From: Gemmata obscuriglobus
GTDB taxonomy: Bacteria; Planctomycetota; Planctomycetia; Gemmatales; Gemmataceae
Assembly: GCF_008065095.1 (NCBI RefSeq)
Contig: NZ_CP042911.1
Span: forward strand, 2,100,001 to 2,132,000
Length of the DNA: 32,000 nucleotides
Direction: 5' to 3'
Shown: positions 941 to 20,083 of the stretch, one piece after another
Layout of the letters: each line of letters begins with the position of its first letter
Numbering within the stretch: position 1 is the first letter of the stretch
The notes under the pieces: model-generated
What the model saw: the letters and a program-made list of their open reading frames with translations, nothing else
Database searches by the model: none
What the model was told of the DNA's origin: nothing
Program-made: the position numbers and the translations under genes

Positions 941-1303
941 ATGAACTGGTCAGATCATTTCCGTGAGTTGAAGCGTCAGCAGCCCCCCGCCGCCGCACCG
1001 AGGTCGGGGCCGACAAGTGTGCAGTCACTCAGCGACATCCCGCCCGAGGCCACGCCGTTGCAGGTGTTCCGCCTGCCCGTCGAAGTCCTCCGGGTGGACG
1101 AGCGAGTAACGAGGACCGGCGACCCGTGCTACTTCCTGCACGTCCGAGACGCCGACGGACAGAGATTCCCGATTGTCTGCTGGGACTGGCAATGGGCCAA
1201 ACTGAGCGGCAGAATCACGGTTGGTCGAGAAGTGACGCTGGACGTGAAAGTGCCGACAGGCGACTACTTGTCGTTTACGCTGGCCGGAACAGGCGCTTGC
1301 TGA
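941..1303 (+). CDS. Hypothetical protein, possible OB-fold
   Basis: The ATG is preceded by AAAGGAG. The C-terminal half (VFRLPVEVLRVDERVTRTGDPCYFLHVRDADGQRFPIVCWDWQWAKLSGRITVGREVTLDVKV) has a beta-strand periodicity typical of OB folds. The fold call is inference only. Confidence 0.6.
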   Translation: MNWSDHFRELKRQQPPAAAPRSGPTSVQSLSDIPPEATPLQVFRLPVEVLRVDERVTRTGDPCYFLHVRDADGQRFPIVCWDWQWAKLSGRITVGREVTLDVKVPTGDYLSFTLAGTGAC

Positions 1304-1594
1304 AAGTCATGCTGCCGAATTTCCGAAAACCGGAATTTGGCGAACGGGCACTCGATGGGAGCGGCGGGGTCGAAGAGGTGTGCAGAGGTGCGCAGCCCGC
1401 AGAATTAGACTGAAGCGTCCGAAGATCGGCGTCGTTGCGTACCGAACGGTAGAGCAGAGTCGGGCGAAGCAGGTGGCCTGGCAAAACATTAACGTCAATC
1501 AAATTCATTTGTCGATTATGCCCAAGCGATAAATTATTATATCGCCTACACAATTGACTGAGCATTGAGAAGGGATTCAGTAAATAAGATTCTC

Positions 1595-1626
1595 TTGAAA
1601 GATGAGTGATGAATATATAATATAAT
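1595..1626 (+). promoter_or_regulatory. AT-rich sigma70-like promoter candidate pointing into the ORF-free region
   Basis: TTGAAA at 1595-1600 is followed by overlapping TATAAT hexamers at 1616-1621 and 1621-1626. The spacers are 15 and 20 nt, so neither is the ideal 17. It sits in the most AT-rich island (about 1490-1650) of an otherwise GC-rich module. Confidence 0.3.
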
Positions 1627-1649
1627 CTAATTAAATAGCCCCTGAATGG

Positions 1650-2280
1650 CAAGCGAGTCGTGTGCTGTGTGCGACGTTAGCGGCTCTTGCGGGAGAAGCA
1701 AAACACGGTGAAGCCTACTACTGAAGGGCGTGCGAAATGGCTCAGTGCGGATACCGTGTGAACGTGCGACGAACAGACACGGGTTAAAGAATATGGCGAA
1801 CTGCCAAAGGTAAGCTCACTTGCGTGGAACTCAATAGCAAGGACGCCCCTATCCGCCGTGTTGTCGGGGTGAGACGCTACGAACACGTAAATCAACCAGT
1901 GGCGAACAATACGCTCCCGTGCTTCGGCACGGGGTCAATACGCCTTCACTCTGGACAGTTCGAGACGAGCGCAACAAGAGTTACCGGCACCTGCGGTGAA
2001 TCAATGCGGGCGTCCGCCAAAGCCCGGACACCCGCACCGATTGTCTGGTTCAGGTCGGGTTCGCTGGTGAATGTGACATGGTTAATGTTGAGTGTTCCAC
2101 CAGCACAACCCGAACGCAGCGCCGCTCGTGGCAGGCGTCCGGGCTTTGGCGGACGCCTGCCGTTGCTCTCGCCGGAGGCGAGCAAGTCACCCGGGTGACG
2201 CCCACTGACCGGCGCACACCCAGCACACCCAAGCTGAAACGCTGGCGGTGCAATGACCCGATGCGCAGTGCGGGTCACAA
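1650..2280 (+). ncRNA. Candidate large structured non-coding RNA, or an array of regulatory hairpins; family not recognised
   Basis: No protein-like ORF on either strand; the track ORFs here are Arg/Pro/Gly-rich junk. Hairpins: 1916-1933 (7 bp closed by a cUUCGg tetraloop, which is strand-specific for +), 2006-2035 (11 bp, one mismatch), 2130-2161 (12 bp perfect), 2168-2182 (6 bp), 2186-2199 (perfect 14-nt palindrome GTCACCCGGGTGAC) and 2254-2277 (7 bp). Confidence 0.3.
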
Positions 2281-2409
2281 GAGCGGGCTTCCTGCAAGAT
2301 GCACCCGGTACCGCCCGGTTAACAAGTCGGCCGGGGTGCGAACCGGCGCAACTCGACCCGACCGCTTGCTGTTACCGACCAGCGCACACCACCTTCCGAC
2401 CGGCGCACA
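2206..2409 (+). repeat. Three direct copies of CGACC(G/A)GCGCACA
   Basis: tGACCGGCGCACAcc at 2206-2220, CCGACCAGCGCACAcc at 2375-2390 and CCGACCGGCGCACA at 2396-2409. The last two start 21 nt apart, about two helical turns. Confidence 0.6.
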
Positions 2410-2472
2410 TTTTCTCCGTCCGTGACCGAGCCGGGCGGTATGGGCGGCGGTGGTGGGCGGCCGATCAGCAGA

Positions 2473-2682
2473 CTACCGGGGGAGGATGGCGTGAAGCCCC
2501 AGGCCGACCACGAACAGTGTGTAGGCGGCGTGGAACAACTGCTGATCCAGCCCGTCATCCCCGTCCCGCCGAGCCGCACGAGCGTCTGCCTCGATTAGCT
2601 CGGACAACAGGTGAAGGACAGACCCGACTGAGTAGGCCGCAAGCACCTCCCGCAGACGCTCTTTCGCTTCGTCGTCGGACAT
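2473..2682 (-). CDS. Hypothetical small protein (69 aa from the internal ATG)
   Basis: MSDDEAKERLREVLAAYSVGSVLHLLSELIEADARAARRDGDDGLDQQLFHAAYTLFVVGLGLHAILPR. The ATG is at 2682-2680. A GTGACCATAC motif copy lies 58 nt upstream. Confidence 0.45.
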   Translation of the reverse strand: MSDDEAKERLREVLAAYSVGSVLHLLSELIEADARAARRDGDDGLDQQLFHAAYTLFVVGLGLHAILPR

Positions 2683-2740
2683 TGGCGTGAACACCCATCT
2701 TGAGGGGCGTGCCCGAATGTGGGCCGCCACACCAACCGGG

Positions 2741-2753
2741 GTGTATGGTCACC
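2741..2753 (-). promoter_or_regulatory. Conserved upstream motif GGTGACCATACAC, copy 1
   Basis: The plus strand reads gtgtatggtcacc. Read in the sense of the downstream minus-strand ORF it lies 58 nt before the ATG at 2682. Confidence 0.6.
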
Positions 2754-2834
2754 AGGGGCGTAGTGTGCTGGCCAAAAACGTTCAGGACGGCCCGGCGTAA
2801 AGACCGTCCTTCGCCGAGCCGTCCATTGTCCGGG

Positions 2835-3689
2835 TTAAGAGTTAACCGGCACTTGCGTTTCGTCCTTCGCCGCTCCCGCTGCGGCGATCTCCTCCGCCGT
2901 ATCGAGGATCAGCCGCACCGCTTCGCACACCCGCTCCAGCACGGCGCAACACGCCGACACCACGTCCAACCGCTCCGAGAGTGCGTACCCGGCGATGTAC
3001 CGCCACGAGCCGCCCAAATCAGCATCTTCTTCGCTTCCGAGCAGCCGCAACAGAACGGCCGCACCCAACTGCGCCACGGTTTCCGAGCGCCAGTGTTGGC
3101 CCTTTTCCTTCAGGTTTCCGGCCCTGTCGTCGGCGGCATGGACGAGTTCGTGCGCCCACGTCGAGAGGTTCTTGACGCCCAGGCCGATGAGTTGCTTCCG
3201 GCGGTAGAAGCCGTGTCGCCCGCTCCCCTCGCCCTCGAAGACTTCGACCCGCAGCCCCCACTTTCGAGCGACTTCCACCAGCGGGAGCGACTCGACCCAG
3301 CGCTCCGCTTCCGGGTCGGCCGGGGGGAGCGGTGCGCCGTCGGTCTGCCCGATTCCGAACACCGGAATTCCACGAAAGCCGATCAGGATTTCTTTGTCTT
3401 GGCCCGTCTCCTCGTCCTTCACGTTTTTGATGATCGGTGCCAGGATCGTGAGCGATTTTTCGCCCTTCTTCACGAACCGCCCGACGCCCTGCCACTGTCG
3501 GAAGCCCCGTGCGTCGGTGTGCCCGGCCAGCGCCACGAGCAGTTGGTTGCGCCACGACCACTTGCGGCACGGGATGTCGTCGCCCGTCCTGACGAACAGT
3601 GTGGCGAGCGGAGCGGGTAACGCCGTCGGGTTCTCAAACGCCTTCACGATGCCCGCCGCCGCCTCTTCCGCACTGCCGAAGTACTTCAT
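2835..3689 (-). CDS. ardC: ArdC-like antirestriction protein (N-terminal ssDNA-binding ArdC-N domain plus C-terminal HExxH metalloprotease-like domain)
   Basis: 'ALAGHTDARGFRQWQGVGRFVKKGEKSLTILAPI' matches the ArdC-N/DUF1738 pattern. 'WAHELVHAADD' is the HExxH motif. I place the start at the ATG at 3689-3687 (MKYFGSAEEAAAGIV), preceded by GAGGGA; the longer track ORF (to 3932) has a non-protein-like N-terminus. Confidence 0.85.
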   Translation of the reverse strand: MKYFGSAEEAAAGIVKAFENPTALPAPLATLFVRTGDDIPCRKWSWRNQLLVALAGHTDARGFRQWQGVGRFVKKGEKSLTILAPIIKNVKDEETGQDKEILIGFRGIPVFGIGQTDGAPLPPADPEAERWVESLPLVEVARKWGLRVEVFEGEGSGRHGFYRRKQLIGLGVKNLSTWAHELVHAADDRAGNLKEKGQHWRSETVAQLGAAVLLRLLGSEEDADLGGSWRYIAGYALSERLDVVSACCAVLERVCEAVRLILDTAEEIAAAGAAKDETQVPVNS

Positions 3690-3755
3690 GGCCCGTCCCT
3701 CGTGGTCACGCCGCACACCGAACCGCCGGGTGCGAACTGCCTTCGAGGGATGGGG

Positions 3756-3768
3756 GTGTATGGTCACC
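3756..3768 (-). promoter_or_regulatory. Conserved upstream motif GGTGACCATACAC, copy 2
   Basis: The plus strand reads gtgtatggtcacc, 66 nt upstream of the ardC-like ATG at 3689. Confidence 0.6.
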
Positions 3769-3812
3769 CAGAACGGGGGAGGGTTGTTAACGTGCCGGGC
3801 GGAGATCAGCGG

Positions 3813-3825
3813 GCGTATGGTCACG
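3813..3825 (-). promoter_or_regulatory. Conserved upstream motif CGTGACCATACGC, copy 3 (variant)
   Basis: The plus strand reads gcgtatggtcacg, 123 nt upstream of the ardC-like ATG. It is a second tandem copy in the same orientation. Confidence 0.5.
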
Positions 3826-4141
3826 GCGCAAGGAAGAGGTCGAGCGTGCGGAGAACCACGAGGAAGACACGAGGCCATTGTCGCTTGAAGGGCCGGGATC
3901 AGGTTCCGTTCGGTGGAAACGGCTGTGGGCACCCGTCAGGCGCTCGACCGCAAAGTTCATTTGCTGACGAGACGGTTGGGCCGAGTCTGCTTCTCTCACG
4001 ACTTGAATCCGCTCCACTGAGATGGCTTAATGCAGACCGGATCGGAGGAGAGGCAGGCCGTTCGGAGCCAACCGACTCCGCCATCCCATGAGCGCCGGCT
4101 GTGATCCGGCGTCGGATCAAACACTTAACTTGGAGACGACG

Positions 4142-4480
4142 ATGACGAAGCATGAGATTCTAGCCCTGCTTCAGCAGAGCGCCGTGAGTCGGCTGGAGAT
4201 TTCTTACGATAGTTCGGACGATGAGGGCATGATCGACTCGGTGACTTGCTTCGGCCCGGATGGGGCACAGGTTAAACCCACACCCGAAATCAATTCCTTA
4301 GTCGAGGAATTGGTGTGTGAAATGCTCGATGAACAGCAGGGCGGTTGGGAACTGGACGACGGATCGTTCGGCGAGGTCGAGATTGATGTCGAAACAGGAT
4401 TAGCCAGTTTTTCGCACACGGTAAGGGTGATTGATTACTCGGACGAAGACTTTGTGGTGTCGATTCTGGAGGGCAACTAA
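4142..4480 (+). CDS. Hypothetical acidic protein
   Basis: MTKHEILALLQQSAVSRLEISYDSSDDEGMIDSV...; GGAGA lies upstream of the ATG at 4142. Its stop overlaps the next start (TAATG at 4478-4482). Confidence 0.6.
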   Translation: MTKHEILALLQQSAVSRLEISYDSSDDEGMIDSVTCFGPDGAQVKPTPEINSLVEELVCEMLDEQQGGWELDDGSFGEVEIDVETGLASFSHTVRVIDYSDEDFVVSILEGN

Positions 4481-4886
4481 TGGCGCACCCCTACCACCAC
4501 GCCCTCAGCAGCGTCAAGCGGTGGGGCGGGCGGGCCGAGGACTACCAGCCCGTCCACGACTGGTTTGACGCAACGAAGGCGTTCCCGACTTCCGTCACCG
4601 TGCCCTCCGCCACCACGCCGAAGGCATTTTTCAGACGGAAGCGACCTTCGGGCGGACCCTGACCAACTCGGACGGGCGTATCGTTCCGGTCCGCAGGGTC
4701 GGCGAGCAGCACGTCAAGGAAGACCTGGGCCGCATCCCGACGGCCGCCGACTGGCTGAGGGAGATCGCACCCCGGCCGTGGGTGGGCGCTTCTGCCGAGC
4801 GGCTGTCGGACCCGCTCCGGCCCCCTGTGAGACTACCGATCCGCCCACCACCGGCCGGATCGCTCGGGAGGTCCGCTCGTAAATGA
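4480..4886 (+). pseudogene. Frameshifted small conserved gene (N-terminus 'MAHPYHHALSSVKRWGG..DY..VHDWFD', remainder in the -1 frame)
   Basis: Frame 1 (4480-) gives MAHPYHHALSSVKRWGGRAEDYQPVHDWFDATKA and then junk ending at a stop at 4660. The frame opening at 4569 gives GVPDFRHRALRHHAEGIFQTEATFGRTLTNSDGRIVPVRRVGEQHVKEDLGRIPTAADWLREI... with a stop at 4884-4886. Together they read as one protein that I recall as a conserved phage/prophage small-protein family; the name is not certain. The shift must lie within 4569-4584. Confidence 0.65.
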
Positions 4887-5182
4887 CCATGAACCTCATC
4901 GACGCCAAGTGGCGGGCCGCCGAACTGGGGCTGGAAATCCGCTACCCCCGGCGCACGGGTGAGGTGCTGTTCGTGGCCCCCCCCCTGACCCGTGAGCGGG
5001 TGCGTCAGAACGACCGGCGAAAGGGCGCCACCCGAAAGGTCGAGCGGCTCCTCCGCCGGTCGGCCGGGGTTCGGTCCCTATCGCTGCCAGGCCCATCAGA
5101 GAACAGGGATATCGCCGAAAGGCGTCTGACCGGCAACACCGTACCGCACGCTTCCAGCCGGGCAACCGGGGTTAACTTGTAA
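4883..5182 (+). CDS. Hypothetical protein
   Basis: Its ATG overlaps the preceding stop (ATGA at 4883-4886). The N-terminal half is protein-like (MTMNLIDAKWRAAELGLEIRYPRRTGEVLFVAPPLTRERVRQNDRRKGATRKVERLLRR). The C-terminal third is low complexity. Confidence 0.5.
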   Translation: MTMNLIDAKWRAAELGLEIRYPRRTGEVLFVAPPLTRERVRQNDRRKGATRKVERLLRRSAGVRSLSLPGPSENRDIAERRLTGNTVPHASSRATGVNL

Positions 5183-5303
5183 CGAGATCGGCAAGGGCGA
5201 GAGAAAACGTATGAGGGAGGCGAGCCGCACGGTTCGCTCCCCTCAGCAGGTCCGCAAGTATGACAATTCCTCATTACTACCTACGATTGCGAGATGGTAA
5301 CCT

Positions 5304-6233
5304 ATGTCAGACTACATCCAAATTTATCTCGCCAATTTCGGAATACCCGGCTGGAAACCCCAGTTCGAGGTTGTGGGCGAACCGTTGGGCCATCGGGTCA
5401 CGAACGCCCCTCCGGGGTTGATCGCCGCCGCTCGCACCCTTCCGATCGACGCCGGCTACCACGTCTGTACGCACAGCGTCCTGACCGCCAGCCGGGCGCT
5501 TTCGGCCGGTGTGAAAGTGTTTCGACTGTCCCCCCACGAGGCCGACGTGTTGGCCAACTGCGACGCCGACATCAGTGCCGCCGACTACGTGCAGCCGTTT
5601 CCGACCATGTTTTACGCCCTGCCCGAAGAACTCCAGGCGGGCACCGACGGTGAGGGGGAGGGGCGCTGGCCGTTCGTGGCGGTGGACCGGCTCGCACCCG
5701 GCCGGGTGGTGGTGACCGGGTTTATCGCCCGCCCTCCCTACACGGGCGACAGTCGGGCCGTCACTGCCTTTCATATCTACCCGGACGACGAGCGCTCTGT
5801 GGCGGTTAACATTGGCGACACACTCGACCGGAAGACGGCCTCCGTGATCCACATCGCCCTCAACGCCGGTTTGTACCTGAGCGTCCGGGGCACGACCGAG
5901 CGGCACGCCAATCCCGGCCGGGTCAAGGCACTGAAGCGCCGGAAGCGGGAGCAGCACCACGAGTGGCGGGACATTCAGCGCCAGTTGAAGCGGGAGCCAG
6001 TGCTGGTCGAACCGGTGCGTCGGATCGAAATACGGCCCTCTTCTCTCGCCGCTCACGACACCGGGCCTCCGACGGGCCTGCGGCAGCGCCCGCACGAGCG
6101 CCGAGGGCACTTTCGGATGCAGGCGTGTGGGCCTCGGCGGGCGGAGCGCAAACTCGTGTTTATTGAACCGTACGCCGTCGGCGGGAGGCGGGACTTTGGG
6201 GGCACGCACACCGAGTACACGCTCGCCTATTGA
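5304..6233 (+). CDS. Hypothetical protein (309 aa)
   Basis: Its composition is protein-like, whereas the fully overlapping antisense ORF 5307-6305 is Arg/Pro/Gly-rich. It has a basic C-terminal tail (RQRPHERRGHFRMQACGPRRAERKLVFIEPYAVGG). Confidence 0.7.
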   Translation: MSDYIQIYLANFGIPGWKPQFEVVGEPLGHRVTNAPPGLIAAARTLPIDAGYHVCTHSVLTASRALSAGVKVFRLSPHEADVLANCDADISAADYVQPFPTMFYALPEELQAGTDGEGEGRWPFVAVDRLAPGRVVVTGFIARPPYTGDSRAVTAFHIYPDDERSVAVNIGDTLDRKTASVIHIALNAGLYLSVRGTTERHANPGRVKALKRRKREQHHEWRDIQRQLKREPVLVEPVRRIEIRPSSLAAHDTGPPTGLRQRPHERRGHFRMQACGPRRAERKLVFIEPYAVGGRRDFGGTHTEYTLAY

Positions 6234-6274
6234 TGCGCACGAACGGCGGATCGAAGGCCGGTCCGTCGGGTGCC

Positions 6275-6287
6275 GGTGACCATACAG
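6275..6287 (+). promoter_or_regulatory. Conserved upstream motif GGTGACCATACAG, copy 4
   Basis: 58 nt upstream of the ATG at 6346, and followed by the hairpin CACGGG-aggtg-CCCGTG. Confidence 0.6.
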
Positions 6288-6345
6288 CCCAGGGTTCGAC
6301 CGCACGGGAGGTGCCCGTGTCGGCGCAACATCTGGGGATCACAGC

Positions 6346-6690
6346 ATGTTCCTGAAAGCACCGTTCGGATTGCCCGCCGACTTCCTCCGCACGTTCGGCT
6401 ACCCCGGCCAGCGGCGCTACATCGGCCTGTATTGGAGTCCTATGGGCGACGAGGCGTGTTGGGACGACGGCCAGTCCTCGGCGTGCGGTCTGGCGGACAA
6501 CCACTACTATCTGGCCTTCATCCGGCGCAAGGAGGTGTTGGCGTGGCGGGACGAGAACGGCCTCCACCTGGGCAACTCCGAAGAAGAGGCGCAGCACTGG
6601 CTCGTGGTGGACGCCGAGACGTGCGAGGTCTACGCCGCCCACTGGCGGGAGGCACGTCAGGCCGTCATCCGGCAGGAGATTCCCAGTTGA
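6346..6690 (+). CDS. Hypothetical protein (114 aa)
   Basis: GGGGA lies upstream of the ATG. The sequence is protein-like (MFLKAPFGLPADFLRTFGYPGQRRYIGLYWSPMGDEACWDD...). Confidence 0.65.
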   Translation: MFLKAPFGLPADFLRTFGYPGQRRYIGLYWSPMGDEACWDDGQSSACGLADNHYYLAFIRRKEVLAWRDENGLHLGNSEEEAQHWLVVDAETCEVYAAHWREARQAVIRQEIPS

Positions 6691-6813
6691 CCATTCACGG
6701 TCGGATCGACGGCGAATTCCGAAATTCGGAAACCTCTGATGGAGCCGTCGGTCGGAGGCAAGGCAAATCCGTGTCACACGGCCGCCCCACCCAGGCCGCC
6801 GAACGGTTCCACG

Positions 6814-6826
6814 AGTGACCATACGC
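6814..6826 (+). promoter_or_regulatory. Conserved upstream motif AGTGACCATACGC, copy 5
   Basis: 52 nt upstream of the ATG at 6879. Confidence 0.55.
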
Positions 6827-6878
6827 ACTCCCGGTCGCCGAGCGCCTGACGGCTCTCGCTCACCACCGGGAGAGGCCG

Positions 6879-7643
6879 ATGATTCGCTACCTGACCGGCG
6901 TGCGCCACCCCGAACTCGATTCGGTCGCCGCACAGGACGGCGAGTACGGCGTTCGTCCGCCGCTGGGCGTTCTCGTTCAACCCCTCACCGCCTGGTACCT
7001 CCGAGACGCCAGCCAGTTTTACGATTACTGCGGGATCGACAACGGGTGCTTCACGGAAGCCGGTCGGGGCCGGTTCACGATGGCCGGGTACGAACGGCTC
7101 GTGAAGTCGGGGCTGGAGCAGTTCGGCCCGGACCTCCTGTTCGCCACCGCTCCCGACACGCCGTTCGATTGGTCCGCAACCCTGCGCTCGTCCCTGCCGA
7201 CCCTTCAAACCATCCGTCGGTGGCAGTGCCCCGCCGCCCTCGTGTGGCAGGACGGGGCCACGGCCGAGAACATGCCGTGGGATGCTTTCGATGTGGGCTT
7301 CATCGGCGGTTCGACGGAGTGGAAGCTCGGCCCCTACGCCAAGCGGTTAACCGCCGAGGCCCGCAGGCGGGGCAAGCTCGTTCACATGGGACGGGTGAAC
7401 TCGACACGACGGCTCCTCGTCGCCCAGCGGTTCGGGTGCGACACCGCCGACGGAACTTATCTCAAACACGAACTCGCCAAAGGAGTCGATCCGGCGGAAG
7501 CGGTCGGGCGGATGGTCGAGTGGCTGCGGGTGTGTTTCTCGACCGAACAGACCGAGGTCCGGGCCGAACTCGTTCGCTCGTGCCCGATGTTGGCCGACCC
7601 CGAACGGATGAAAGCGCTCCGTCTCGCCGGACTCATCTGGTGA
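6879..7643 (+). CDS. TGT-fold (tRNA-guanine transglycosylase / DpdA-like) TIM-barrel protein, putative nucleic-acid base-exchange enzyme
   Basis: The motif order resembles TGT/DpdA. 'GIDNGCFTE' corresponds to TGT 'TDSGGFQ' (first catalytic Asp). 'GFIGGSTEW' corresponds to 'GxAIGG'. 'LVHMGRVNSTRRLLVAQRFGCDTADGTY' corresponds to 'hLMGVGxP....GxDMFDC' (second catalytic Asp). GGGAGAGG lies before the ATG. Coding confidence is high; function confidence is about 0.4. Confidence 0.7.
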   Translation: MIRYLTGVRHPELDSVAAQDGEYGVRPPLGVLVQPLTAWYLRDASQFYDYCGIDNGCFTEAGRGRFTMAGYERLVKSGLEQFGPDLLFATAPDTPFDWSATLRSSLPTLQTIRRWQCPAALVWQDGATAENMPWDAFDVGFIGGSTEWKLGPYAKRLTAEARRRGKLVHMGRVNSTRRLLVAQRFGCDTADGTYLKHELAKGVDPAEAVGRMVEWLRVCFSTEQTEVRAELVRSCPMLADPERMKALRLAGLIW

Positions 7644-7753
7644 AGCCCGTTGCGCCCGGTTCCGCCCGTCGGAACCGCTCGGCGGCGAAAGTCGTTGCAC
7701 CGAATTGAGAAGTCATTTCCGGCGTGGCGCTCTCCGGCGTCCGCCCCCAGTCC

Positions 7754-7766
7754 GGTGACCATACAC
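7754..7766 (+). promoter_or_regulatory. Conserved upstream motif GGTGACCATACAC, copy 6
   Basis: 58 nt upstream of the ATG at 7825. Confidence 0.6.
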
Positions 7767-7824
7767 CCGGTTCGGCGTCGGCGCTGCCGAGCTTCTCCGC
7801 ATCCGACACCACGAGGGCAGTGAC

Positions 7825-8100
7825 ATGATTGCCAGATTCGGGCTGGGTGTACTGGTCGCCACGCCGGGTGCGCTGGCGGCGCTGCGTGATGCGGGGCAAT
7901 CTCCGGCCGACTTCCTCAAGCGCCACGCCAGAGGCGATTGGGGCGACCTCGACGGGCACGACACCAAACAGAACGAGATCGCCCTCCGGGACGGCGGGCG
8001 GCTCATGAGCAGCTACCAGACCACGAAGGGCGAAACGGTCTGGGTCATCACCGAGGCCGACCGCTCCTCGACTTGCATCCTCCTGCCGGGCGAGTACTGA
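7825..8100 (+). CDS. Conserved plasmid/ICE-associated small protein (GDWGDL...ITEADRS.T.ILLP.EY type)
   Basis: 'HARGDWGDLDGHDTKQNEIALRDGGRLMSSYQTTKGETVWVITEADRSSTCILLPGEY' is a pattern I recognise from small ORFs that accompany ardC-type genes on conjugative and integrative elements. Its function is unknown. Confidence 0.75.
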   Translation: MIARFGLGVLVATPGALAALRDAGQSPADFLKRHARGDWGDLDGHDTKQNEIALRDGGRLMSSYQTTKGETVWVITEADRSSTCILLPGEY

Positions 8101-8161
8101 GCTTCCGCCGCCCGAAGTTTCGAGCGATGATTCGACCGACTCGCCCGGAGAACACCGTCCG

Positions 8162-9118
8162 ATGTCCCAGCACCACGAGATCGGCGACGTGGCCCCGACC
8201 TCACTCGCCCACCTGATCGGCCAGCGGTCGGTGGTCGAGCAGGTCCGGGTCGCCCTCGACGCCGCCCACCAGGACGCCAAGAAGTTCGACCACGCCTTAT
8301 TGTGTGGGCCTCCGGGGTGTGGAAAGACGCAAACGGCGAAAGTCATCGCACAGGAAATGGCGGGCGAGTTTCAGGAGGTTCTGGGGCAGGCGATCCAGTC
8401 CCCCGCCGACCTCAACGCCTTGTTGCTCGGGGCGAAGGACCGGGACGTGATCCTTCTGGACGAGGCGCACGAACTCGACCGAGAGTACCAGACCGCCCTC
8501 TACCTCGCCATCGACCAGCGCCGGGTGCTGCTCCAGACGAAGGGCCGGACGCCGCAGGCCATACCGCTCGCCGACTTCACGCTCCTGCTCGCCACGACCG
8601 ACGAGTTCAAGCTGCTCCAACCCCTGCGGGACCGGATGCGGCTGTGCCTCCGGTTCGGGTTCTACTCGGCGGAGGAACTGGCCGAACTGATCCGGCAGCG
8701 GGCGGCGGCGCTGGCTTGGGACGTGGACGTTAATGTTTATCGCCCCATCGCCGCCCGCTCCCGTGGGACGCCACGCCTGGCGCTGCGGTTGCTCCAGGCC
8801 GCACGCCGGGTGTGCCGCTCGCAGGGCGACGAGCGGGTCACCGGAGTTCATCTCGAACGGGCGTGCCTGCTGGAAGGGATCGACGGCCTGGGCCTCGGCC
8901 CCACCGAGCAGCAGTACCTTGCCGTTCTGGGTGAGGGGGCGAACCGGCTGAACGTGATCGCATCTCGGCTCGGGCTGCCGACCCGCACCGTCGCCGAGGT
9001 GACCGAGCCGTTCTTGATCCGGGCGGGGCTGGTGGCAAAGGACGACCAGGGGCGACGGCAACTGACCGCCGAGGGGCGTGACCACTTCGTTTCCATTTGT
9101 CGGAAAAATGGCGTCTGA
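8162..9118 (+). CDS. ruvB: RuvB-family AAA+ ATPase (Holliday-junction branch-migration helicase paralogue)
   Basis: Full RuvB layout is present. It shows 'LIGQRSVVEQVRVALDAA', Walker A 'LLCGPPGCGKTQTA', Walker B 'VILLDEAHEL' and sensor 'LLLATTDEFKLLQPLRDRM'. It also shows 'SRGTPRLALRLLQAARR' and a C-terminal winged helix 'GLGPTEQQYLAVL...VTEPFLIRAGLV'. Confidence 0.9.
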   Translation: MSQHHEIGDVAPTSLAHLIGQRSVVEQVRVALDAAHQDAKKFDHALLCGPPGCGKTQTAKVIAQEMAGEFQEVLGQAIQSPADLNALLLGAKDRDVILLDEAHELDREYQTALYLAIDQRRVLLQTKGRTPQAIPLADFTLLLATTDEFKLLQPLRDRMRLCLRFGFYSAEELAELIRQRAAALAWDVDVNVYRPIAARSRGTPRLALRLLQAARRVCRSQGDERVTGVHLERACLLEGIDGLGLGPTEQQYLAVLGEGANRLNVIASRLGLPTRTVAEVTEPFLIRAGLVAKDDQGRRQLTAEGRDHFVSICRKNGV

Positions 9119-9132
9119 ATCGAGGAACGCTG

Positions 9133-9618
9133 ATGTCAAAAAGTGGTCAAGAACCGGCCGATGCGAAGAGCGGCGTGAGCGTCAGCGACATGGCCCGGAC
9201 GGTCGGACTGTCCCGCCAGCGATTCCACCAACTGATGAAGTCCGGCGTCTTCCCTCAGCCCCTCCGAGACGAGGCGACGGGACGCCCCTACTACGACGAG
9301 TCGGGTCAGGCGCAGTGTCTCGAAGTGCGCCGCCGGAACTGCGGGGTGAACGGGCGGGTCGTCCTCTTCTACGCACGGCGCCAGCCCGCCACCGCACCGC
9401 CGCCTCGACCGGCCAAGCCCCGACCAGCGCCGACTGAGAAGCACGATGAAATCCTTGACGGCATCCGGGCGCTCGGCCTGGTTCAAGCGACGGCATTACA
9501 AGTTAACGACGCCATCAAGGAATCGTTCCCGAAGGGCACGGGCGGGGTGGCGGTCGGCGAAGTGATCCGGGCCGTGTTCCTCCGGTTGCGACAGAACACG
9601 GCGGATAAGGTGGGGTGA
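9133..9618 (+). CDS. HTH DNA-binding protein, excisionase/regulator-like
   Basis: The ATG at 9133 is preceded by GAGGA. 'VSVSDMARTVGLSRQRFHQLMKSGVFPQP' is an HTH, followed by a Pro-rich linker and a C-terminal domain. It lies immediately upstream of the integrase. Confidence 0.65.
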   Translation: MSKSGQEPADAKSGVSVSDMARTVGLSRQRFHQLMKSGVFPQPLRDEATGRPYYDESGQAQCLEVRRRNCGVNGRVVLFYARRQPATAPPPRPAKPRPAPTEKHDEILDGIRALGLVQATALQVNDAIKESFPKGTGGVAVGEVIRAVFLRLRQNTADKVG

Positions 9619-9698
9619 TAAGGGACATTCTCCGCCCAATCCCGGACGGGTAGCGTCAGATTCGTGTCCCGATCCCGTCACATTCGGAGCATCAATCC

Positions 9699-10610
9699 GT
9701 GAAGAATTCGGCGAATAAGGTTTTCGGCACCACTCAGGTCGGAGAGGGAGAGGCAGCGCTCTTCACCACCTTCCTCGACGCCCACGACTTCGCTTCGGGA
9801 ACCCGGAAAGCGTTCACCCTCGACATCAAGAAGTTCGCCGTATGGTTCGCTGAAGTGAACCGGGAACCGTTCCGGGTCGGTCGGGTGACCATGAGGGACG
9901 TGACCGACTTCCGGGAGCACCTCCGCCGGGAAAAGGGTCAGGCCGTTTCCACCGTCAACCGGGCACTCGTGGCCGTACGGCGGTACTTCGGGTGGCTCGC
10001 CGAGCAGGGGCACGTTGCCTCGAACCCGGCGGTGGGCGTGAAGGAACTCCGGCGGGTGCAACTTGCGCCGAAGGGACTCCAACGGGATCAGGTGCGAAAA
10101 CTGTTGCGGGAGGTCGAGCTTCGCCAGGACGTGCGGGCCTCGGCGGTCTTTCACCTGCTTCTGTACACCGGCTGTCGGATCGGCGATCTCGTGAATCTTA
10201 AACTTCAAGACCTTATGCTGACCGAGCGGTCGGGAACAGTGGTATTCCGGCTCGGCAAGGGAGGGAAGCAACGGTCGGTTCCCCTCCCGCTGCCCGCCCG
10301 CAAGTCCATCCAGGCTTACCTCGACACCCGACCGCCGGTGAAGGAGCAGATTGTTTTCATCGGGGAACGTGGGCCGCTGACGGACCGGGGCGTCCGGGCG
10401 ATGTGCGACAAGTACAGCGCCTTGATCGGCGTGAAGCTGCACCCACACCTGTTTCGGCACACGATGGCGCACCAGTTCCTTGCGGACAACGAGAACGACC
10501 TCGTCGCCCTGGCCCAACTGCTCGGGCACGAGAACCTGAACACCACGGCCCGGTACGCCCGCCGGAGCCACGACCAACTGGCCGATGCCGCCGACAAGCT
10601 GACGTATTGA
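9699..10610 (+). CDS. Tyrosine recombinase / phage-type integrase (XerC/D-like)
   Basis: GTG start. It has an N-terminal SAM-like domain and the catalytic residues in '[11 protein letters not shown]', '[12 protein letters not shown]' and '[13 protein letters not shown]' (R..HxxR..H..Y). Confidence 0.92.
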
Positions 10611-10640
10611 CCGTGGCGCACGGGTAACGAGAGGATTGCC

Positions 10641-10754
10641 ATGAGCGAGTTCAAGCTCGGCACGCTGACCAACCAGCCCCACAAGACCGAGGGCCGGAGC
10701 GTGACCTGCACCGTGCCCGTGGACCGTCCTCCGGCGCTGATCGTCGGCGGCTAG
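10641..10754 (+). CDS. Possible 37-aa micro-ORF downstream of the integrase
   Basis: ATG preceded by GAGAGG. The peptide is MSEFKLGTLTNQPHKTEGRSVTCTVPVDRPPALIVGG. There is no other support. Confidence 0.25.
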   Translation: MSEFKLGTLTNQPHKTEGRSVTCTVPVDRPPALIVGG

Positions 10755-11242
10755 GCGTTCCGGTTCGAGACCGAAAGCGACCGGAGCAACGACCGATGCC
10801 CGGCAGCGCTCTACGGATTGAATGAAGGAGCTTGCGTGCGGTGCTGCTGCGACGACTGCCCGGCTGCGTGGCAAACAATGAAATTAATTAACTCCTGACC
10901 AAAACCTTCTCAGCAGTACCATGCCTCCCCCGTGCCTGACGGCTACGGCGACCACCTCGTTCTTCTAACCGAGTAACATTTTCGAACGGCGGGTGTGAAG
11001 CAGTGCCCCCGAAAAGTAGAAGAAGTGTCGATGGGGTCGGGTCGAAAAATCGGCGGGCGGAAAATTGGCGACGGGCCAGGATTTCGACCCTCAAAGAAAA
11101 GCGAACCACACCCTACTCACAGCCTTCGTAGGGGCTTTGGTCGTCTTCGTGGTCATTCGGGCAGCAGAAGGCATCGTAAGCGATTTGGCAGGCCGCCGAG
11201 TTCATCCTGCTTCGTGAGGAGCGTCGCCGGCTTCCTCATGCC

Positions 11243-19217: not shown

Positions 19218-19261
19218 AATCCCAGCACTGTTGACAATCTTTCACAAGTGTCTAGTCCCTG

Positions 19262-20083
19262 GTGATGGTGTGTGCAATCTGCGGCGGGATCGTGTTGCGG
19301 CGTCGGGTGATCCTGGCGAACGTACTCGCGTTCGCGTGGCTGGTGGTGATCGCGCTGAACCCCACCGACCCGTTCACCGCCGGCTGTCAGTTGTCGTTCC
19401 TGTGCGTGTTCGTGCTTCTCTTCGGTGCGGCGCGATGGCTCAAGCCGCGCGACCTCACGCCCATCGAACAACTCATTGATGAGACCCGCGGGCCGACCGA
19501 GAAGGCCGCCCGCGCGGCGCTGCGGTGGGCGTGGAACCTGTTCGCGGTGGGGTTCATCCTGACGGCGGTGAACGTGCCGCTGGTGCTGGCGTGGCAGAAC
19601 GTCGCCTCGCCGGTCGCCGTCCTCATCGGGCCGCCGCTGGTCGTGCTGACCGGTGTTGCGCTCATTGCCGGTTTTGTGCTCCTGGTGCTGTCGCCGCTGG
19701 CCGTGTGGGCCGCGTGGCCGTTCGCGCGCGTGACGGAAGCGTGTCTGGCGGGGTGCGAGTGGATCGTTCACCTGGCGGACCGCGTTCCGGGCGGCCACGT
19801 GTACGCCCCCGGGCCGCCGATGTGGTGGCTCGTCGGGTTCTACGTACTCGTCGCGGGGCTGGTGCTGCTCGACGGGCGCCGCTCGCGGCACCTCTTCGTC
19901 GCCCTCGTCGTGTTCTCGACCTTCGGCGCGGCTCTCGGGCTGTCGCCGCACACGTCCGACGAGATGCGGGTGACGTTCCTGGCGGTGGGTCACGGCGGGT
20001 GCGTGCAGTCGCCGTCACTTTTGGCAACTGCTGGGCATTATCGGGAGTGTCGGGAAAAATGCAATCGGAGCAGCGGGGCTTAA
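19262..20083 (+). pseudogene. comEC: Internal fragment of comEC/rec2 (DNA internalisation channel), truncated at both ends
   Basis: It contains the polytopic Competence-domain sequence 'LNPTDPFTAGCQLSFLCVFVLLFG...'. It ends in 'MRVTFLAVGHGGC', the first strand of the ComEC metallo-beta-lactamase domain ('vtflDVGqGda'). Homology stops around 19995-20030 and GC drops there. The N-terminal DUF4131 part and the rest of the lactamase domain are absent. Confidence 0.8.

Follow-up and report, generated by a model that had tools for sequence, protein, structure and literature searches.

An integrative element of about 8 kb in the genome of Gemmata obscuriglobus was found to carry six exact, oriented copies of the 10-mer GTGACCATAC, which is read here, at a probability of roughly 0.55, as the core of an element-specific promoter of the −10-region type without a −35 partner. 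The DNA analysed, hereafter the window, was a stretch of 32,000 nucleotides (positions 2,100,001–2,132,000) of the source genome (G000), a single contig of 8,999,201 bases with 67% G+C, and the element occupies approximately positions 2473–10,900 of the window. All six copies of the 10-mer, hereafter the box, were intergenic and lay within 5 kb, each aimed at a downstream open reading frame (ORF). An initial annotation of this DNA had described six copies upstream of genes on both strands, all in one orientation relative to the downstream ORF, and the exact 10-mer was located at all six sites. It had also placed five of the six 52–66 nt before start codons; these figures were taken from 13-mers and agree with the gaps of 54–68 nt between the 10-mer and the start codon (Table 1). 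The start of ardC, previously set further upstream, was corrected to ATG 3689, giving a product of 284 aa.

When up to one mismatch was allowed, the window gave seven matches to GTGACCATAC against 1.13 expected, a count reached in 0 of 100 shuffles, and the single extra site, at position 466, was unrelated. After the 10-mer, five of the six copies continue with R-S-C and the copy at 6815 with R-C-A, a weak extension with the consensus ACCCC, and the consensus of the box was GGTGACCATACACCC. The flanks of the copies were otherwise unrelated, and aligning them revealed no common upstream sequence. Across the genome the exact 10-mer was present 12 times, six times in the window, five times in 5S rRNA genes and once at 3,096,333, and none of these copies belonged to an ordinary host gene. 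Base composition predicts about nine exact copies for the whole genome, and the box is therefore not enriched in host DNA. With up to one mismatch 171 sites were found genome-wide, the sole cluster being that of the window, while a search of 60 related genomes for clusters of GTGACCATACRSC gave none, just scattered single matches. The possibility raised earlier that the motif is restricted to this element was thus borne out, the copies outside the cluster being those of the 5S genes and of one paralogue locus. The same island also contains, 27 kb to the left, a one-mismatch copy, GTGACCGTACAGCC, 65 nt upstream of an ORF of 199 aa; as it is alone, it could be due to chance.

The box was conserved on three independent metagenome contigs (L094, L095 and L098), which encode homologues of the ORF7825 product with 82–89% identity in the same gene order, and RuvB-like proteins 80–88% identical to that of the window. 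On these contigs the same 10-mer precedes the ORF7825-like gene, the ORF6346-like gene, the ArdC gene (two tandem copies) and, on one contig, a small ORF after the integrase. A second locus of G000 (3,096,333–3,097,033; L081 6333–7033) encodes paralogues of ORF7825 and ORF6346, in this order, with an exact box 67 nt ahead of the first. The ORF7825 paralogue has 67% amino acid identity and one in-frame TAA, and the locus adjoins a very large RHS/YD-repeat gene; the GCGCGTCGTAC repeats of this locus are coding repeats of the RHS/YD type and were set aside as irrelevant to the box. When the sequences preceding the ORF7825-like gene in the window, on the three contigs and at the 3.096 Mb locus were aligned, mean column identity was 62% and G-T-G-A-C-C-A-T-A-C was the only invariant block. 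Upstream of ArdC, alignment with L098 revealed that both tandem boxes are kept and that the spacer between them has diverged. The invariance of the box at orthologous sites with diverged flanks indicates purifying selection on the box sequence itself, and not recent copying. That the repeats are a functionless by-product of recent duplication or chance is highly improbable: short boxes could spread with copied promoter-gene modules, but the edges of conservation are sharp, the flanks within one element are unrelated, the box is invariant at orthologous sites in four independent sequences and the shuffles never reached the observed count.

Nine further genomes from the bacterial family of G000 contain more distant relatives of the element, and each relative has its own, internally near-invariant box, for example AATGAAACACCCC, GACACTCGCAAC and CGGACACCGGC (Table 1). 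These boxes were derived from k-mer counts as the over-represented oriented sequence of each element. The box of the window was found upstream of 0 of 30 ORF7825-like genes in other genomes, and the ORF7825-like genes of G543, G471, G478, G563 and the window each have the box of their own element. Thirteen elements were tabulated, four of which (the window and three metagenomic relatives) have the window's own box. On the sense strand, within a range of 8–85 nt from the box, a Shine-Dalgarno-like sequence and a start codon were present in 65 of 80 copies, at 18–84 nt, and the box-to-start distances in the 13 elements were 73 nt or less in all but one. Genome-wide, the copies of the local box fell inside the element in 11 of 14 cases for G546, 6 of 6 for G471 and 3 of 4 for G588. 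The private boxes of the relatives strengthen the idea of an element-specific signal, and it is held with high confidence that the box is a selected, element-specific cis-signal. In G478 (L079 11080–11105) two facing box copies form a perfect hairpin (CGGACACCGGTgcctGCCGGTGTCCG), unlike all other copies.

The boxes have a loose core in common, a −10-like hexamer nAYACY (CATACA, GATACC, GATACT, GACACC, GACACT, AACACC) that is often preceded by TGA. In G546, G535 and G543 the box starts, at the shortest, 33 nt before the ATG with a good ribosome-binding site in between, which excludes a −35 role and places the box at approximately −20 to −7 or in the transcript. G546 also contains two divergent back-to-back boxes 23 nt apart, leaving no room for separate upstream promoters. 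In the window a terminator-like hairpin (2784–2810, minus strand; 10-bp stem and T run; fold z-score −4.0) follows ardC and stands directly before box copy 1. Two metagenomic arrays (L023 1–11800 and L024 1–4964), which have a 76% identical homologue of the 254-aa gene of the element, contain 10–20 small same-strand genes, including an ADP-ribosyltransferase-like gene and a DUF5710 gene. Nearly every spacer of these arrays consists of a terminator hairpin, TTGCTT, 16 nt, (G)TGGCATAGTTGAGTG, a leader hairpin and a ribosome-binding site; the extended −10 box of the arrays, TGGCATAGT, resembles GTGACCATAC, and the layout is one promoter per gene. The short distance between box and ATG, the divergent pair of G546, the position of copy 1 behind a terminator and the layout of the arrays make a promoter core the best reading of the box. 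From position only, we infer a promoter rather than a signal in the 5' untranslated region. Such a box would give several genes of the element their own, coordinately controlled transcription starts, and transcription would begin just downstream of it, leaving a leader of 20–60 nt with a ribosome-binding site. The box would be read by a dedicated specificity factor, which might be an unrecognised protein of the element, a factor from a helper element or a host sigma factor, and whose preference would have diverged together with the boxes.

The box was compared with known promoter classes and other oriented signals. A consensus scan for a sigma-70 −35/−10 pair (TTGACA-like, 16–18 bp spacing) found none at any box copy, in agreement with the initial annotation. 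In the nearest −10 hexamer, CATAC(A/G), position 2 is A but position 6 is not T; GATACT and GACACT of relatives comply at both positions. On inspection of the six copies and the boxes of the relatives, neither the spacing nor the bases fitted a sigma-54 promoter (TGGCAC-N5-TTGC, GG and GC 10 bp apart). An extracytoplasmic function (ECF) sigma promoter, with a GGAAC-like −35 at 16–17 bp upstream of a CGT-containing −10, was rejected because the position excludes a −35 role and there is no second conserved element. The search for a T7-type polymerase (Pfam RNA_pol, PF00940) gave no match in G000, but the test is a weak one, as this family matched none of the control genomes either. A Frpo-type single-strand promoter, a hairpin of about 300 nt, was rejected on the length of the intergenic spacers (42–124 nt) and on inconsistent fold z-scores. 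FtsK-orienting polar sequence (KOPS)-like translocase guides, iterons and primase sites were rejected on the grounds that all copies lie between genes and keep to start codons.

Several observations weigh against a private promoter. The antisense control in the same 13 elements gave 22 of 80, and is a weak control, inflated by spurious ORFs in G+C-rich DNA. The hexamer is without the T of sigma-70 promoters at −7, and several of its variants are G+C-rich. No terminators were seen between the genes of G546 and G471, which would allow co-transcription and an RNA-level role of the box. The 8–10-kb elements were found to encode neither a sigma factor nor an RNA polymerase, nor an obvious DNA-binding factor that could confer specificity. 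The original proposal of an element-specific promoter served by an alternative sigma factor or activator, or of a 5'-UTR signal, was upheld in part: the signal is element-specific, with relatives that have their own boxes, but no alternative sigma factor or activator was found in the element. Conserved proteins of the elements were also considered as the reader of the box. Elements with quite different boxes share one helix-turn-helix (HTH), MARMVGLSRxRFYQL, in the AlpA/Xis-like protein, and across such elements the RuvB-like protein likewise keeps its winged helix; both proteins were rejected, as their DNA-binding parts do not vary with the box. The universal 91-aa protein was rejected on a confident model that matched no DNA-binding fold. 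A lead only is provided by an ECF sigma gene of G478 (L079 14607–15220), whose ATG follows a copy of the local box at 18 nt and whose homologue in G535 (L078 14043–14622) is 51% identical. These two genes sit about 10 kb beyond the integrase, and their closest homologue in G000 has no box; they could be host neighbours or the missing box-reading factor.

An operator would also account for a short sequence of this kind. A repressor or activator encoded by the element would bind the box at each promoter, the establishment genes would fire together on entry and then be shut down, and host RNA polymerase would use poorly conserved promoter elements overlapping the box. In the consensus GGTG-ACCATA-CACC the two 4-bp arms form a dyad, and partial palindromes also occur among the boxes of several relatives (CGGaTAcCCG, GGA-TAC-TCC, TGCAATTGTA). 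Immunity-type repressors typically show element-private specificity, and an XRE-family HTH gene, which adjoins ArdC in L098 and is 77% identical to one elsewhere in the island of G000, is a candidate for this role. However, the invariant part of the box comprises the left arm and the centre, with a right arm that varies (CACC, CGCC, CAGC, CGCA), the opposite of what a symmetric dimer site would give. The earlier description of the core as non-palindromic thus needs qualifying: the arms form a weak dyad, of which the right arm is the least conserved part. The orientation of the box to its gene is also strictly kept, there is no sigma-70-like −35/−10 pair around any copy, and the XRE gene was seen neither in the more distant elements nor on L094 and L095, which are short contigs that do not cover the region. 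An operator was considered unlikely.

The box could also act in RNA. The genes would then be transcribed as long polycistronic RNAs in which the box, bound by an RNA-binding factor of the element or the host, marks the leader of each cistron for processing, stabilisation or translational control. The box is always on the sense strand, and in G478, G471 and G546 it lies closely behind the preceding stop codon with no terminators between genes. The five 5S rRNA genes of G000 (genome positions 1037603, 2023929, 2944633, 4795566 and 6678157) start with ccgGTGACCATACcc and have 13–15 bases in common with some box copies, for example tgccgGTGACCATAC at 6271–6285, so that the identity of the 10-mer and its flank with the 5' end of host 5S rRNA could point to mimicry of a site for RNA processing or protein binding. 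This identity, though striking, is probably a coincidence. The boxes of other elements are unlike the 5S sequence of G000; the 5S pattern gave no match in five of those genomes, probably because 5S genes are unassembled there. Within the spacers the box lies unpaired or inconsistently paired, the fold z-scores range from −4.0 to +1.3 and no common structure includes the box. A search with the covariance models of Rfam 15 over window positions 1300–11000 gave 0 matches at E-values up to 1. An inverted copy of the box with up to two mismatches was not found nearby, nor was an antisense partner in the window or the genome. The strong terminator-like hairpin before copy 1 and the divergent pair of G546, which leaves no space for promoters further upstream, argue for a promoter core instead, and a role in RNA was judged less likely again than an operator.

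Gene content between the boxes turns over fast, and comparison of the window with L098 revealed one swap, in which the 254-aa gene is replaced by a DUF6900 gene and the right breakpoint falls immediately upstream of the following box. The box could be a boundary site at which the tyrosine integrase, perhaps with the RuvB paralogue, exchanges cassettes of box and gene in an integron-like manner. The same gene has the local box in each element, and the gene for a Holliday-junction motor is fixed beside the integrase. Chromosomal integrons, whose attC sites are homogeneous and specific to the species, offer a precedent. In the L098 swap, however, the left breakpoint falls at the stop codon of the preceding gene and not at a box; the two breakpoints fit movable box-plus-gene modules without marking the box as the crossover site. 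An integron attC site (R''-L''...L'-R' hairpin at the 3' end of the cassette) was rejected, as there is no inverted copy, no common hairpin and the box is 5' of genes. Both orientations of the box occur within one element, its position is tied to the start codon and not to the gene end, the integrase matches just the generic Pfam phage-integrase and SAM-like domains, and a promoter equally predicts invariance at orthologous sites. Recombination at the box is improbable, and ranks below both an operator and an RNA signal.

Similar arrangements are known from other mobile elements. The conserved upstream (CUP) repeats of the leading region of the IncN plasmid pKM101/R46, reportedly described by Delver and Belogurov in 1997, are likewise repeated oriented sequences before several anti-restriction and establishment genes and are thought to supply a co-regulated promoter. 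As in that class, the same oriented sequence was found here before several genes of one element and is near-absent from the host genome. CUP repeats are hundreds of bases long, with ordinary sigma-70 promoters and known plasmid repressors, whereas the box has 10–15 conserved bases and no −35/−10 pair. The promoter-early stem-loop (PeSL) cassettes of T4-type phages, reportedly described by Arbiol, Comeau and Krisch in 2010, also give each small accessory gene its own promoter, in repeated modules that border rapidly exchanged genes, and the layout of L023 and L024 is very similar. PeSL cassettes consist of a host sigma-70 early promoter consensus and a stem-loop, while the box of the window has neither a −35 nor a constant hairpin. 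The promoters of T7, T3 and SP6 resemble the boxes in being contiguous, near-invariant and private to their element, in lying beside the start site and in diverging between related elements, and the SP6 promoter ATTTAGGTGACACTATAG and the boxes of G543 and G549 have GGTGACAC in common; the boxes are shorter and without a TATA-G initiation region, and the search with PF00940 gave no match, as in the control genomes.

The attC sites of integrons are imperfect palindromes of 60–140 bases that end the cassettes on the 3' side and are recognised in a folded, single-stranded form. They too are repeats that border exchangeable single-gene cassettes near a tyrosine recombinase and are homogeneous within an array, but the box has 10–15 bases, is unpaired and stands 5' of the gene. 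Broad-host-range plasmids have global operators (KorA/KorB of RK2; ArdK, StbA and KorA of R388), and the global regulators of IncP, IncW and IncN plasmids bind at many promoters. These operators are palindromes or iterons with identified proteins, while the box is asymmetric and strictly oriented. In them, as in the control of the establishment genes of pLS20 (PMC6294495), one short sequence at many promoters of a mobile element switches transfer and establishment genes together. The anti-defence leading regions of conjugative plasmids use Frpo-type single-stranded DNA promoters with long hairpins (PMC11541004). Such regions share with the element ArdC and an anti-defence cluster whose early expression would matter on entry, but there is no long hairpin at the box and the 8-kb integrative element has no visible transfer genes. 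The box works like CUP repeats, PeSL cassettes, T7/SP6 promoters and global operators but belongs to none of these, being short, asymmetric, without a −35 and diversifying between closely related elements.

The minus strand of the element carries ArdC and the 69-aa ORF. The plus strand carries accessory and anti-defence genes in the order DUF6878, a frameshifted gene, two small genes, the 309-aa gene and the box-preceded genes 6346, 6879 and 7825, followed by the RuvB paralogue, the AlpA/Xis-like gene and the tyrosine integrase (Table 1). The frameshifted gene is a phrog_8143-like frame apparently broken in window 4480–4882 (ORFs 4480–4662 and 4565–4882), and kin of this stretch are widespread in the bacterial family. 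The 309-aa product has 57% identity to an L098 homologue with a precomputed AcrVA2-like Pfam hit, by which the gene may be anti-CRISPR-type cargo. Homologues of the 254-aa protein were not found in 400 genomes of the phylum, nor by a pattern scan of genome contigs, and one distant metagenome locus was found. The AlphaFold model of the 91-aa product of ORF7825 had a predicted local distance difference test (pLDDT) score of 96.8 and an alpha/beta domain, and gave no significant match among solved structures (PDB). Its family comprises 6307 database proteins at E-values up to 0.001. Of 151 genomes from the bacterial family, 53 encode such proteins, frequently more than one, and the domain is sometimes fused to a longer N-terminal part.

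Table 1. Positions of the boxes and genes of the element in the window, and boxes of its relatives in other genomes.
Feature	Position	Strand	Description
Box copy 1	2743–2752	−	GTGACCATAC then ACCCC; 60 nt to ATG 2682 (69-aa ORF)
Box copy 2	3758–3767	−	ardC-proximal; gap to ATG 3689, 68 nt
Box copy 3	3815–3824	−	distal tandem copy, 57 nt upstream of copy 2
Box copy 4	6276–6285	+	gap to ATG 6346, 60 nt; same box at the L098 orthologue
Box copy 5	6815–6824	+	gap to ATG 6879, 54 nt
Box copy 6	7755–7764	+	gap to ATG 7825, 60 nt; sole invariant block in the five-way alignment
Small ORF, 69 aa	2473–2682	−	no family match; gene status uncertain
ArdC-type anti-restriction gene, 284 aa	2835–3689	−	Pfam ArdcN, PHROG anti-restriction protein; 78% identity to the L098 product
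DUF6878 gene	4142–4480	+	lower G+C; no upstream box
309-aa gene	5304–6233	+	no box; own AT-rich sigma-70-like promoter 5260–5287 (ATGACA-16-TACGAT)
114-aa gene	6346–6690	+	function unassigned; paralogue at genome 3,096,687
254-aa gene	6879–7643	+	phrog_15826, function unassigned; other promoter type in metagenomic arrays
91-aa gene (ORF7825)	7825–8100	+	present in 6 of 6 elements compared
RuvB paralogue	8162–9118	+	element-borne; canonical ruvB elsewhere in the genome, 32% identical
AlpA/Xis-like HTH protein	9133–9618	+	kept across elements with different boxes
Tyrosine integrase	9699–10610	+	right end of the element; generic Pfam phage-integrase and SAM-like domains
Box of G546			AATGAAACACCCC; 13 copies
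Box of G535			AACTGCAATTGTACC; 7 copies
Box of G478			CGGACACCGGC; 14–16 copies
Box of G563			cTGACGGATACCCGCTAC; 4 copies
Box of G588			aaCGGATACTCCCT; 7 copies
Box of G543 and G549			TGACACCGGCTGG; 4 copies in G543, seen once in G549
Box of G471			taACTGACACTCGCAAC; 9 copies
Box of G534			CCCGTCAAAATGCGTAG; 4 copies
Box of G556			TAAGTCGTACTAGAA; 4 copies

The module of RuvB-like, AlpA-like and integrase genes recurs, with 66–73% nucleotide identity, in over 15 genomes of this bacterial family, accompanied by ArdC, DUF932, MutS-domain-I fragments and many small ORFs; a search of IMG/VR with the RuvB-like protein found nothing. The spacer between the ORF7825-like and RuvB genes (window 8101–8161) has a distinct conserved box, TTCG(A/G)AGCGATGAT, in the window and in L094, L095 and L098, and in more distant elements the RuvB paralogue instead has the general box of the element upstream. 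The small ORF that follows the integrase in relatives is broken in the window (10641–10850) by a TAG at about 10753, and that of L095 has its own GTGACCATAC box with a gap of 24 nt from the end of the 10-mer. Genome size and G+C, a homologue named in Paludisphaera and a neighbouring gene with an N_methyl domain fit a host that is probably a planctomycete. The element sits within a larger composite island with a large serine recombinase. A comEC-like gene is seemingly split by an insert of about 52 kb, with its C-terminal part at window 19256–20083 and its N-terminal part at genome 2,066,031–2,068,837 adjoining a large serine recombinase of 567 aa, by which the whole region is taken as a composite island.

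If the box is a private promoter, a very small element would turn on its anti-defence and establishment genes together, shielded from host regulation and from related elements in the same cell. More broadly, a family of integrative elements of 8–10 kb in these probably planctomycete bacteria may run private, fast-diversifying expression codes, in which a box of 10–18 bases of their own stands before nearly every gene and is read by a factor unlike sigma factors, RNA polymerase or classical HTH proteins, or the boxes may be new integron-like cassette-exchange sites of the conserved integrase-RuvB pair; this wider proposal is speculative and rather doubtful. Private expression codes, if true, would be orthogonal transcription systems in very small elements. 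The box variants, at least ten of which have diverged naturally together with their cognate elements, are a ready series for finding the box-reading factor, and could provide planctomycetes, a group with few characterised promoters, with orthogonal expression parts. The box is also a practical marker, as a search for clusters of the box of a lineage finds the element and its cargo, including many small proteins without assigned function encoded beside anti-restriction and anti-CRISPR-like genes.

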